From Deltaproteobacteria bacterium (GTDB lineage: Bacteria; Desulfobacterota; WTBG01; JAGOGO01): a stretch of DNA of 64,000 bases. The stretch's first letter is position 1, and each line of letters begins with the position of its first letter. The position numbers were made by a program, and so were the translations under genes. The notes beneath the pieces were generated by a model. That model did not search any database. It saw only the letters and a list, made by a program, of their open reading frames with translations, and was not told the DNA's origin. The stretch covers positions 2,336 to 66,335 of the forward strand of contig JAGOGO010000001.1 of NCBI GenBank assembly GCA_017996625.1, in the 5' to 3' direction. This document shows positions 27,102-30,722 of the stretch, in pieces.

Positions 27102-27353
27102 CTACATTTTACCTGCTGCCTTACGTTTGGAAGCCTTGAGAGCATTGAGAGCTTTCTTCTGCGTTGTATCTTCCTTTTTCACGTGAGTAGCAAAGTTGCA
27201 CGAACCATTCTTCCACTTTAATTGTGGCTCAGCGTAAATCGAACAGAATTTTCCGGTTTCATATTCCACAATCCGTGTGCAACCTTCGCATTCTGCTGTT
27301 ACGGTATAGCATTTGCCGCCATTATAGCCACATCCGGTTTTTTTCATAAACAT
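27102..27353 (-). CDS. PxxKW-type small cysteine-rich protein
   Basis: 84 aa from internal ATG (MFMKKTGCGYNGGKCYTVTAECEGCTRIVEYETGKFCSIYAEPQLKWKNGSCNFATHV...). Six spaced Cys and the P-x-x-K-W motif match the small family NCBI annotates as PxxKW family cysteine-rich protein. Plausible AAGG ribosome-binding site upstream of this ATG. Confidence 0.55.
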   Translation of the reverse strand: MFMKKTGCGYNGGKCYTVTAECEGCTRIVEYETGKFCSIYAEPQLKWKNGSCNFATHVKKEDTTQKKALNALKASKRKAAGKM

Positions 27354-27808
27354 GCAGTCAACGCCTTTTTTCAGTGTCTGACAGAGCACGAGAACCACCG
27401 CCTTTCTTCAATCTTACTGACCCTTGTTCAGCGATACATGAATGATGATGTTGAAAGATAAAAGACAACCCGACTATCAGCGACTAAGATATCGGGTTCG
27501 GTCGACATAATAAATGATCAATTATTATACACTTGTGTAATTTTGTCAAGAAAAAAAGAAAACTATTTTCCTCCCGGTGTACTGTTCTTTAGAAAAAGAT
27601 GCTTTGTTTTTCTGGTCGGATAATAATCTGTTTGCTCTATGTTTATGGTATTAACAGAGGTTAAGGTGTGGGTTTCGTCTCTTGCGACAGATTTTGCTTG
27701 GTGTGTTGCATTGAGAGGGAGATTACGGTAAAAAAGGAAACTAGCCTTTCAGAAATGCATGATCAGCCTGACGGAGTACGTATTACTGAAGGACTGAAGA
27801 CATGAGTT

Positions 27809-28885
27809 TTGGTCAGAAACACCGGTACGCATGGTTTTTCCTTTATTCCATCACTGACTTATTTACGTCCATCACTGAGAATTCCTGTAAAGAAGAATGC
27901 TTTGAAAAATCTTATTCGACGACTTGGTGATACCATCCTGGACGGGAAATCCCTCGGATTTTCCGAGGCAGTTTCGCTGTTAGCGGTCAATCAGTGCGAT
28001 CTCGTCGATCTTTTTGCTGCAGCTAATCGCGTGCGGCACCAGTTTCTTGGTGATCAAATTGAGTTCTGTACTATTATAAATGCCAAGTCCGGTCGTTGCT
28101 CTGAAGACTGCCGGTTTTGTGCTCAGTCCGCTCATTATACGGGAACGTGTGAGACGTATGCTATGCTCCCGGTCGAGGATATGCTTGCAGCCGCACTCGA
28201 TGCCAGCCGCCGCAAGGTTCAACGGTTCAGTATTGTAACGAGCGGAAGAACTCTTTCCCGTAAAGATCTAAAAACTGTTTGCACCGCTTCCGAGCGGATT
28301 CGAGAAAAAACACCTATGCTGGTCGATTGTTCCCTCGGATTTCTCTCTGCTGATCAGGCAAAGGCGTTAAAAGAAGCAGGCATAGATCGTTACCATCATA
28401 ATCTCGAGACTGCAGCAAGCTTTTTTGAGAAAGTCTGCACGACCCATACCTTCAGTGAAAAGCTGGCCACTATCAGCCGAGTCAAAGAAGCCGGTATGAG
28501 TATATGTTGCGGGGGCATTATGGGCCTCGGAGAAACTCCGGAACAGTGGCTAGAGCTTGTGTTTCAGTTGAGAGACCTGGAAGTGGATTGCATCCCCGTC
28601 AATATCCTGAATGCACGTCCTGGAACACCGCTCGAACAGGAAACACCACGTCCGCCTCACGCGGTACTAAAGATGCTTGCCATTACCAGGCTTATCGTTC
28701 CTCGTGCTGAGATTCGGCTTGCCGGAGGACGGGAAGTGAACCTGCGTGACCTCCAGAGTGCAGCTTTTTTGGCTGGGGTATCGGGAATGATCGTTGGGGG
28801 GTATTTGACGACACCTGGTCGCAGTATTGAAGAAGACAATCAATTAATCCGAGATCTAGGGCTTATCAGGGTACAAGACGGATGA
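27809..28885 (+). CDS. bioB: biotin synthase
   Basis: Radical SAM CxxxCxxC (CSEDCRFCAQS), YHHNLET, and GGIMGLGET motifs of BioB. 5' end uncertain: no in-frame ATG near the expected N-terminus; a TTG near 27899 (…KNLIRRLGD) is a plausible start. Confidence 0.8.
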   Translation: MVRNTGTHGFSFIPSLTYLRPSLRIPVKKNALKNLIRRLGDTILDGKSLGFSEAVSLLAVNQCDLVDLFAAANRVRHQFLGDQIEFCTIINAKSGRCSEDCRFCAQSAHYTGTCETYAMLPVEDMLAAALDASRRKVQRFSIVTSGRTLSRKDLKTVCTASERIREKTPMLVDCSLGFLSADQAKALKEAGIDRYHHNLETAASFFEKVCTTHTFSEKLATISRVKEAGMSICCGGIMGLGETPEQWLELVFQLRDLEVDCIPVNILNARPGTPLEQETPRPPHAVLKMLAITRLIVPRAEIRLAGGREVNLRDLQSAAFLAGVSGMIVGGYLTTPGRSIEEDNQLIRDLGLIRVQDG

Positions 28886-28901
28886 AAGAGAAGGTGGTGC
28901 T

Positions 28902-29588
28902 ATGAGAGTAGTATCTATCGAAGCAACAACCCTAGATGATGCCTGGCATCAGGCAGTATATAATCTTTTTGATCATGGATATAAGTATACTATCGATAGC
29001 GGAAGCTATGCCGGGAGCCAGCGAATTGAGTTTGATTTCGTGGTCATTCGGATCAAGAATCCGGCGGATGAGCCGCGACTTCCCAGAATTCCGGAGCAGC
29101 TTCGTATCCCCCCGCCGGTAAGTGATGATTATGTGGTGAATTATTTCAACGACTACATCATGGGTGGCAACAAAGCGAAAGGTGAGGATTATACGTATGG
29201 CGAGCGACTGACGAAAGCGCCTCGATCTGATGGAACCTTCTTTAGTCAAATCGAAGAAGCAATCCGACGATTCCGAACGGAGGGATTTGGTACTAATCAG
29301 ATTATTCTTCAAGTAGGGCAACCTTCGGACCTCTTATTGAATGATCCGCCCTGCCTGCGCCACATTGACCTGCGCATCCGGGATAGCATGCTCCACTTTT
29401 TTCCCTACTTCCGTTCCTGGGATCTATGGGGAGGGTTTCCCGCCAATCTGGCTGCGCTTCAGCTTCTCAAAGAATATATGGCCATGGAAATCGGCGTGGC
29501 TGACGGTGAAATCGTTGCTGCCTCCAAGGGTCTCCATATCTATAAGCATGTTGAGGAGCTGGCTAAACTGCGATTTGGAAAGCCCTAG
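28902..29588 (+). CDS. thymidylate synthase-like protein (short, archaeal-type ThyA fold)
   Basis: 228 aa. C-terminal half aligns to the ThyA catalytic core: NDPPCLRH (PPC active-site Cys), YFRSWDLWGGFPANLAALQLL (compare [21 protein letters not shown]), GEIVAASKGLHIYKHV (compare GDFVWTGGDTHLYSNH). Confidence 0.55.
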   Translation: MRVVSIEATTLDDAWHQAVYNLFDHGYKYTIDSGSYAGSQRIEFDFVVIRIKNPADEPRLPRIPEQLRIPPPVSDDYVVNYFNDYIMGGNKAKGEDYTYGERLTKAPRSDGTFFSQIEEAIRRFRTEGFGTNQIILQVGQPSDLLLNDPPCLRHIDLRIRDSMLHFFPYFRSWDLWGGFPANLAALQLLKEYMAMEIGVADGEIVAASKGLHIYKHVEELAKLRFGKP

Positions 29589-29660: not shown

Positions 29661-30461
29661 GTGGTGATGAAACATAAAGACACCTTTACCTCGAAGCAAT
29701 CGTTTTTTTCCGGACTCACCTGCTCCGATGTCCAGCACCTCATCGAAAGACTGCCCTTTACCGTGATTGTGCTCAATGCTCACGGACAGGTGGTATATGT
29801 TAACGAGTGGGGAGAGAAGGTCTATCAGTGCACATTTGACGATATTCACCATCGTCCCCTCGCTGATATCCTGTTTGTGTCTGATCCGGACATCCTTGCC
29901 AATGCGCTTGCAGTAGCCTACAAAGGAAAAGTGGTTTTCAACGTACGGTGGCAGGAGGAGCAGTATTATGAGGGACGAGTGTTTTGGCGCGAGGCAACCT
30001 TCATTCCGTTTTTCGCTGAAACAGGAGACATTGAATATGTGATGGTGACTGTCAACGATATTACCGAGCACGTGCGATCGCAGAAAATGCTCATCAAGAG
30101 CCAGGAACAGTACCGAAGGATCTTTGAGTGCGCACCTGTTGCCATAGTGATTCTCGAGCGCGGTATCATTCGTGGCTCTAATCCAGCATGGGAGCTTCTT
30201 AGCGGATACTCACAAGAAGATCTTCTGGGAACCCGCGTCGAACGGATTGTGTCAGAGGAACATACCTCTGGCATTAGCTGGGTAGAAAAGCTGGAAACAG
30301 CGATTGATAAGGCGCAAGCAGGAGAAGTGCAGTCACTAACGATGTCTTGGAAGACAAACAGTGGTGACATTATAAGCACTTGTATAACAATTGGCTCGAC
30401 CAGCAGCAGCGGTAGCATCACTCCAGGCGCGCTAGTGGAAGTAATCATTCAAGAAGTTTAA
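29661..30461 (+). CDS. PAS domain-containing protein (two PAS folds, no output domain)
   Basis: Two PAS-like repeats (LPFTVIVLNAHGQVVYVNEWGEKVY... and YRRIFECAPVAIVILERGIIRGSNPAWELLSGYSQEDLLG). No kinase, GGDEF or HTH domain follows. Confidence 0.65.
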   Translation: MVMKHKDTFTSKQSFFSGLTCSDVQHLIERLPFTVIVLNAHGQVVYVNEWGEKVYQCTFDDIHHRPLADILFVSDPDILANALAVAYKGKVVFNVRWQEEQYYEGRVFWREATFIPFFAETGDIEYVMVTVNDITEHVRSQKMLIKSQEQYRRIFECAPVAIVILERGIIRGSNPAWELLSGYSQEDLLGTRVERIVSEEHTSGISWVEKLETAIDKAQAGEVQSLTMSWKTNSGDIISTCITIGSTSSSGSITPGALVEVIIQEV

Positions 30462-30722
30462 AAACAACCCTCTTAACCTAAAATTAAGAGAAAAAAGAAG
30501 GAAAAACCAGCTTTCAGAAGCTTGCGTCCGCTGATTGGATGTGAAAATTTTGTTCATAACTCACCTAAGAGATTAAAAGGTCGTTTTTTTTCTAAAGGGT
30601 CCTATCCTCCTTGGCTGATGAGAAAATGCCGTGAATTGCTGATAAATAGTGTTAGTTTTTGCAAGCTTATATGTTCGGTAGCGCTTTTTACATTCCTTCG
30701 GCAAAACGATCAAAAACAGCGG

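Follow-up and report, generated by a model that had tools for sequence, protein, structure and literature searches.

The window analyzed here is a 64,000-nucleotide (nt) stretch of contig JAGOGO010000001.1 (positions 2,336 to 66,335, forward strand) from the Deltaproteobacteria bacterium assembly GCA_017996625.1. Within it, a short ThyA-type gene, hereafter thy, follows the biotin synthase gene bioB and precedes a gene for a protein with two PAS domains and then dnaA (Table 1). We consider it probable, by homology, that thy encodes the housekeeping thymidylate synthase (TS) of this organism, a short ThyA-fold enzyme that would methylate C5 of deoxyuridine monophosphate (dUMP) to give deoxythymidine monophosphate (dTMP).

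Table 1. Features at and around thy, in window coordinates; numbered residues are those of the predicted protein
Feature	Coordinates	Strand	Remarks
Short ThyA-type gene thy (predicted TS)	28902..29588	+	ATG start; 228 amino acids (aa) plus stop codon
Y99			= E. coli ThyA Y94 (HMMER and hhalign mapping)
T131-N132-Q133	29292..29300	+	Stands where canonical ThyA has its phosphate-binding S-R126-R127 (HMMER and hhalign)
Active-site loop D148-P-P-C151-L-R153	29343..29360	+	Cys151 nucleophile = E. coli Cys146; D-P-P-C151 at 29343-29354
R171-S172-W-D174 ... N182	29412..29447	+	= E. coli R166, S167, D169, N177; contacts to phosphate, pterin and uracil
H212-I-Y214	29535..29543	+	= E. coli H207, Y209; deoxyribose 3'-OH contacts
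bioB (biotin synthase), upstream neighbour	27809..28885	+	TIGR00433, 395 bits (cut-off 225); Radical_SAM and BATS domains
bioB-thy spacer, 16 nt	28886..28901	+	Shine-Dalgarno-like AAGGTGGT at 28891-28898
Two-PAS-domain protein gene, downstream neighbour	29661..30461	+	266 aa, no output domain; Pfam PAS matches
dnaA	30807..32153	+	1.2 kb downstream of thy, putting thy in the replication-initiator region; Pfam DnaA_N/Bac_DnaA/Bac_DnaA_C on identical contig

The open reading frame (ORF) of thy is not a chance one, since its product has 3725 homologs at E <= 1e-3 and an identical protein is encoded on 12 metagenome contigs. An identical NCBI entry, from a Thermodesulfobacteriota metagenome-assembled genome (MAG), is already labelled "thymidylate synthase". 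On Pfam PF00303, residues 96 to 220 score 47.5 bits, above the gathering threshold of 24.3, and solved ThyA chains match the same C-terminal half (E = 4e-9, HMMER). An AlphaFold2 model built from 49 homologs, with a predicted local distance difference test score (pLDDT) of 93.9 and a predicted template modelling score (pTM) of 0.91, shows the ThyA fold spanning the whole chain, with a beta-strand at residues 3 to 8 that is extra to canonical ThyA. These results bear out the first-pass annotation, which had been made from the letters alone and had called a ThyA-fold protein with a PPC nucleophile loop; the ORF and the sequence alignments also agree with its description of a short, 228-aa protein with a divergent N-terminal half. 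An antisense ORF of 129 aa inside thy (28932..29321, minus strand) recurs in 64 related loci; we attribute this recurrence to the conservation of thy on the sense strand and reject the ORF as a gene.

Among curated models, the best match is that of the methanogen-type TS, TIGR03283, which aligns over the full length (residues 5 to 216) with 103.5 bits; the canonical model, TIGR03284, yields 36 bits. The TIGR03283 cut-off is 174.55 bits, and 10 diverse relatives of the thy product also stay below it, at 60 to 108 bits. ORF59 of Methanobacterium virus PhiF1, taken from the phage collection as a methanogen-type control, reaches 187.1 bits. Since this control passes and the thy product does not, we place the latter outside the methanogen equivalog. 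The hidden Markov model comparison that the first-pass annotation had proposed thus confirms a closest likeness to the methanogen-type TS, although the label "archaeal-type" holds only approximately given the score below the cut-off. Among 150 listed representatives, a search for true methanogen sequences produced 10 candidates; none of them reached the threshold of TIGR03283, and the only source organisms given by cluster look-ups were Deltaproteobacteria. Judged by sequence, the protein belongs to a separate, large clade of short ThyA proteins from bacteria and phages, which extends over at least 593 species-level genomes, 196 IMG/VR viral contigs and 1414 clusters at 50% identity. Its genomes come from Thermodesulfobacteriota/Desulfobacterales, Planctomycetota/Brocadiia, Omnitrophota and Spirochaetota.

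To judge which active-site residues are kept, we used 80 species genomes, 80 viral copies and 114 diverse representatives; for the C-terminal half, HMMER and hhalign agree on the mapping to E. coli ThyA. Eight mapped residues (Y99, C151, R171, S172, D174, N182, H212 and Y214) are invariant in the 80 species genomes, kept in 77 to 80 of the 80 viral copies and near-invariant across the representatives. The catalytic Cys151 is present in 113/114 representatives and 160/160 loci, and D148, C151 and R153 are invariant in all 80 species loci. The 196 IMG/VR contigs with a clade homolog show the same invariant residues. Together, the retained contacts to uracil, deoxyribose, phosphate and pterin make up the set that an enzyme dependent on dUMP and folate should have. 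We therefore do not favour the earlier suspicion that the true substrate may not be dUMP, given the invariant Asn182, His212/Tyr214, Arg171/Ser172 and Asp174; that the ortholog of thy is the sole TS listed for the closed genome of a relative speaks against it as well.

This relative, the nearest named genome, is ORM2a, a benzene fermenter from a strictly anaerobic consortium that is represented by a closed MAG (CP113000.1; 3.30 Mb, 100% complete; GTDB Desulfobacterota, BSN033, UBA8473). Its ortholog (locus L013) is 81% identical to the thy product and lies at the chromosome end with the same bioB neighbour. In module M00938, the published KEGG table of ORM2a has a single TS, K00560 (OS130_15675/WAC07624.1), two locus tags past BioB (OS130_15665/WAC07623.1), along with class II ribonucleotide reductase, dut, tmk and ndk; thyX (K03465) is not listed for ORM2a in this table (PMC13101534). 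Queries for FolA (E. coli), ThyX (T. maritima) and ThyA (E. coli), whose sequences may contain small errors, were compared by tblastn with the 64-kb window and the fetched loci and matched the thy gene alone. Most likely, then, thy encodes the only dTMP-making enzyme of its organism.

The company that the gene keeps is that of DNA replication. Chromosomal copies adjoin replication genes in two unrelated orders, dnaN-gyrB-thy and, in the clade of the window, thy-PAS-dnaA, and phage copies lie within replication modules with polB-UDG (uracil-DNA glycosylase), RecA, clamp and helicase genes. One homolog of 422 aa (P0239) consists of a short ThyA domain (5-211) fused to a thymidine kinase (PF00265, 244-418). 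Several others (P0125, P0128, P0135, P0243 and P0257; 470-990 aa) are interrupted by one or two inteins each (Hint, Intein_splicing, LAGLIDADG); the insertion sites are the catalytic Cys or its immediate vicinity (about residue 151-153) and about residues 105-113. We count the thymidine kinase fusion, as a Rosetta-stone case, in favour of a housekeeping TS, and likewise the inteins at the catalytic Cys because such insertions are typical of essential DNA-precursor enzymes. The homolog on a 188-kb phage-like contig (L007/L008/L093; gene at L007:10001-10666) is 66% identical to the thy product. This contig carries mostly small hypothetical genes on one strand and also N6_N4 methyltransferase, GIY-YIG and SLT genes; among the genes next to the viral copies (L093-L172), several are a QueE-like radical-SAM gene or encode a protein of 468 aa without a Pfam match.

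By homology to ThyA, Cys151 would add to C6 of dUMP while Asn182 would read the uracil face, Arg171/Ser172 would grip the phosphate and His212/Tyr214 the 3'-OH. Tyr99 would help C5 deprotonation, and the methylene-tetrahydropterin whose pterin Asp174 would bind is most likely methylene-tetrahydrofolate (CH2-THF), since the lineage runs a tetrahydrofolate (THF)-type Wood-Ljungdahl pathway. The dTMP product, the one-carbon donor and the hydride source are those that we infer for thy by analogy with ThyA.

Several observations weigh against so straightforward an assignment. The inter-subunit Arg126/Arg127 pair is N132-Q133 in the thy product, as it is in all 80 species; of the 114 diverse representatives, 110 have N132 and 100 have Q133. 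Asp148, three residues before the nucleophile (C-3), stands at the position of Leu143, which is never hydrophobic among the 114 representatives; this equivalence is positional, as HMMER aligns M. tuberculosis A-L-P-P-C with N-D-P-P-C of the thy product and hhalign has a gap there. E. coli His147 and Gln165 correspond to Leu152 and Phe170, and the C-terminal segment that closes the active site is absent, with 14 residues after Tyr214 compared to 55 in E. coli. Across the clade the median tail after the Tyr214 equivalent is 17 residues. About 40-45 C-terminal residues of canonical ThyA are missing. Literature searches gave no paper that describes the short bacterial clade or assays a member. Moreover, the status of "only TS" comes from the KEGG table of a relative, ORM2a, and not from the genome to which the window belongs, and ORM2a has no KEGG-recognizable dihydrofolate reductase (DHFR), that is, no folA/folM orthology entry and neither K00287 nor K13938 (PMC13101534).

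The picture for the canonical dUMP and folate residues that the first-pass annotation had wanted checked is accordingly mixed: the Cys, R166/S167, D169, N177 and H207/Y209 are kept, and R126/R127, Leu143 and the C-terminal lid are not. It had proposed that a complete set of these residues in a genome without another thyA or thyX would indicate simply the housekeeping TS; ORM2a has neither a second thyA nor a thyX listed, yet the set is incomplete. Asn-Gln in place of Arg126/Arg127, Asp in place of Leu143 and the loss of the lid leave the exact chemistry somewhat in doubt. In L. casei TS, Arg126'/Arg127' reportedly tolerate substitution by mutagenesis, unlike Arg166.

How might the clade make up for these losses? 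It has invariant basic residues of its own, R41, R153 and K209. When the clade is aligned to E. coli ThyA with hhalign, the C-terminal half alone is recovered, outside which Arg21, Glu58 and Trp80 lie; Arg41 is a candidate Arg21 equivalent by secondary-structure register only. We infer that R153 and K209 may compensate for the lost arginine pair, since PhiF1 ORF59 keeps T-R-R and lacks both residues. More broadly, we suggest that Arg41, Arg153, Lys209 and Asp148 offset the missing Arg126'/Arg127' and the remodelled Glu58/His147/Gln165 network. The signature of the clade is T-N-Q for S-R-R, a D-P-P-C-L-R loop, an R-S pair flanked by Phe and Trp, and the absence of a C-terminal lid.

The acidic residue at the Leu143 position deserves particular attention, as a published rule associates such a residue with hydroxymethyl or hydroxyl rather than methyl products, the bulky hydrophobic Leu143 being proposed to keep water out and so favour the methyl product (PMC13326640). 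Two further positions are diagnostic: 177 is Asn in enzymes acting on dUMP and Asp in those acting on deoxycytidine monophosphate (dCMP), and 169 is Asn in flavin hydroxylases (PMC13326640). The thy product has Asn, Asp and Asp at 177, 169 and 143. Read literally, the rule would make it a dUMP 5-hydroxymethylase or some other enzyme that places a non-methyl group on C5, with Asn182 and Asp174 then indicating dUMP and folate. Acidic residues at this position are found in T4 dCMP hydroxymethylase, MilA and the 5-hydroxy-dCMP (5hodCMP) synthases (PMC13326640), the clade is abundant in phages, as its IMG/VR contigs attest, and there are weak matches, at 28% identity, to phage "deoxyuridylate hydroxymethyltransferase". 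However, such an activity would leave ORM2a, with its sole listed TS, without a source of dTMP. The gene is chromosomal, lies by replication genes and is found universally in at least 593 free-living species, a fusion to thymidine kinase exists, and no hypermodification genes are consistently found beside it. The methanogen-type TS, too, is acidic at this position (Glu in K-E-I-P-C). We hence find a hydroxymethylase improbable, and do not follow the rule because the methanogen-type TS has the same pattern and the genomic evidence points to dTMP synthesis. Indeed, the three short ThyA-fold groups, namely the thy clade, the methanogen type and the 5hodCMP synthases, share the loss of the C-terminal segment, and all of them are acidic at 143 and non-canonical at 147 and 165. 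The Leu143 rule may therefore not transfer to the short architecture.

The same diagnostic positions bear on a flavin-dependent pyrimidine-nucleotide 5-hydroxylase like RB69 gp48 or HY126 (PDB 9iqc). An acidic residue at 143 is the only diagnostic that the thy product shares with such enzymes; the other two of the three fail, with Asn instead of Asp at 177 and Asp instead of Asn at 169, and sequence identity to the 9iqc-type enzyme is just 17-20%. In addition, the reaction needs O2 (PMC13326640), and ORM2a stems from a strictly anaerobic consortium. We attach almost no weight to this possibility.

A different question is posed by the cofactor. ORM2a possesses FolE2, FolK, FolP and FolC and a THF-type Wood-Ljungdahl pathway (PMC13101534), and this in a genome with no folA/folM entry. 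Likewise, at 92 cellular and 80 viral loci no FolA-like gene was found in the 10 kb around the gene, nor was one found in the 64-kb window. Such a setting would suit a dTMP synthase with non-canonical cofactor use, which would take its hydride from flavin or another reductant, or its carbon from another one-carbon carrier, and would neither form dihydrofolate nor need FolA. Other features also favour it: the closest solved structure, 9iqc, is a short ThyA-fold enzyme with bound flavin adenine dinucleotide, the cofactor-pocket residues Leu172 and Phe176 are Gly177 and Ala181 in the thy product (by position counting on the hhalign alignment), the lid is missing, and His147, Gln165 and Leu143 are all altered. 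Nevertheless, Asp174, the equivalent of the pterin contact Asp169, is invariant, where the flavin enzymes have Asn, and the likeness to 9iqc can be explained by the common short architecture alone. De novo folate synthesis needs some DHFR in any case. The missing folA is for this reason no argument against TS activity, and it says little for an unusual cofactor, for whose handling it does leave room. On balance, we regard a non-canonical cofactor as unlikely, though not negligibly so. A related and rather unlikely idea is that the short clade is a mechanistically distinct TS with a self-contained single-subunit active site, in which Arg153 and Lys209 would stand in for the partner arginines and perhaps no dihydrofolate is released. 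If true, this would explain how folate-using anaerobes like ORM2a can have a ThyA-type enzyme and no recognizable DHFR.

The position of thy behind bioB was taken in the first-pass annotation as a sign of co-transcription and was called unusual. Co-transcription is consistent with our data: the 16-nt spacing was confirmed, and a consensus scan showed no terminator-like site between bioB, thy and the PAS gene, the first one after thy lying at 30522-30544. Because of this spacing and the lack of an intervening terminator-like site, co-transcription of bioB, thy and the PAS gene is plausible, with the PAS gene probably the last of the unit. As to bioB itself, about 49 residues precede the TIGR00433 alignment, which starts at residue 50, and the ortholog at locus L010 is 327 aa long. 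The true start may thus lie downstream of the listed TTG at 27809. On some contigs a 45-aa ORF is called just upstream of bioB. In the window, a gene for a small, Cys-rich DUF6811 protein (27102-27398, minus strand) lies divergently upstream, and an 11-of-12 match to a sigma-70-like promoter is located at 27549-27521 on the minus strand.

A functional meaning of the adjacency is not supported. An enzyme that partners BioB in biotin or sulfur-insertion chemistry might be expected from the short gap, the common strand, the absence of a terminator and the retention of the arrangement in the closest relatives; for instance, a 77%-identity relative retains bioB-thy-PAS-dnaA though the block upstream is inverted, and the PAS gene between thy and dnaA is kept in the close clade (10 loci). 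Yet BioB is upstream in merely 5 of the 80 species-level loci, all within the clade of at least 81% identity and with gaps of 16-522 nt, and a 51%-identity relative has no bioB near its homolog. In other genomes the place is taken by gyrB (21-23/80 species, Desulfobacterales, in the order dnaN-gyrB-thy; gyrB-thy gaps 0-174 nt in 21 species, L018-L085, e.g., L052:417-2849 for gyrB and L023:6399-7517 for dnaN) or by an NYN/YacP gene (14/80 species; Omnitrophota and Planctomycetia). No bioB was seen near the phage copies, and the other biotin genes of ORM2a (bioA, bioD, bioF-like) are elsewhere in the genome. Since the adjacency is rare, its gap drifts and gyrB or NYN/YacP replaces bioB elsewhere, it is local synteny and not functional coupling. 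A partnership with BioB is in our view extremely improbable, and on the neighbourhood statistics we reject a biotin-related role. Regarding the nearby dnaA, a scan for DnaA boxes (TTATCCACA, up to 1 mismatch) revealed no enrichment and no cluster near this gene.

For the window, the outcome is a plain annotation, namely, the probable dTMP synthase of a member of Desulfobacterota, class BSN033, that is related to ORM2a, with an incidental link to bioB. The clade as a whole carries wider interest. It is very large and named thymidylate synthase by annotation pipelines, yet it lacks several residues deemed hallmarks of ThyA. By breaking the recently published Leu143 rule for methyl versus hydroxymethyl products (PMC13326640), it may point either to the limits of that rule or to new chemistry. 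It would also bear on the long-standing problem of "ThyA without FolA" in anaerobes, of which ORM2a, with its "missing DHFR", is a case.

Comparison with known ThyA-fold systems helps to delineate the clade. Canonical ThyA (EC 2.1.1.45; E. coli, L. casei, M. tuberculosis) is 16-20% identical to the thy product, the N-terminal halves do not align at the sequence level, and Arg126/127, Leu143, His147 and Gln165 are replaced by Asn-Gln, Asp, Leu and Phe, respectively. The enzymes that modify cytosine nucleotides differ at the base-reading position: MilA (PDB 5jnh) and T4 dCMP hydroxymethylase (PDB 6l18) have Asp177 (PMC13326640), where the thy clade has an invariant Asn. Similarly, the phage 5-hydroxy-dCMP synthases (RB69 gp48/HY126; 9iqc) combine Asp177 with Asn169, Phe209 and S-R-R, in contrast to the uracil/folate pattern of the thy product. 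Closest is the methanogen-type TS (TIGR03283; PhiF1 ORF59), of which MJ0757 is another example. Its members, too, have about 210-230 aa, align with the thy product over the full length and have no C-terminal lid; they share the Y-T-Y-G-[DE]-R motif, an acidic C-3 residue (K-E-I-P-C in PhiF1), a Leu after the Cys, and the retained Asp169 and Asn177. In PhiF1 (L092:3889-6579), the TS gene lies directly upstream of a DnaE-type polymerase gene with an N-terminal family-4 UDG domain, an order that echoes the polB-UDG fusions beside the bacterial-phage copies. Even so, identity is 27%, the thy product falls short of the equivalog cut-off, and PhiF1 has T-R-R without Arg153/Lys209, whereas the thy clade has T-N-Q with invariant Arg153/Lys209 and is hosted by bacteria and their phages that would use THF, not tetrahydromethanopterin.
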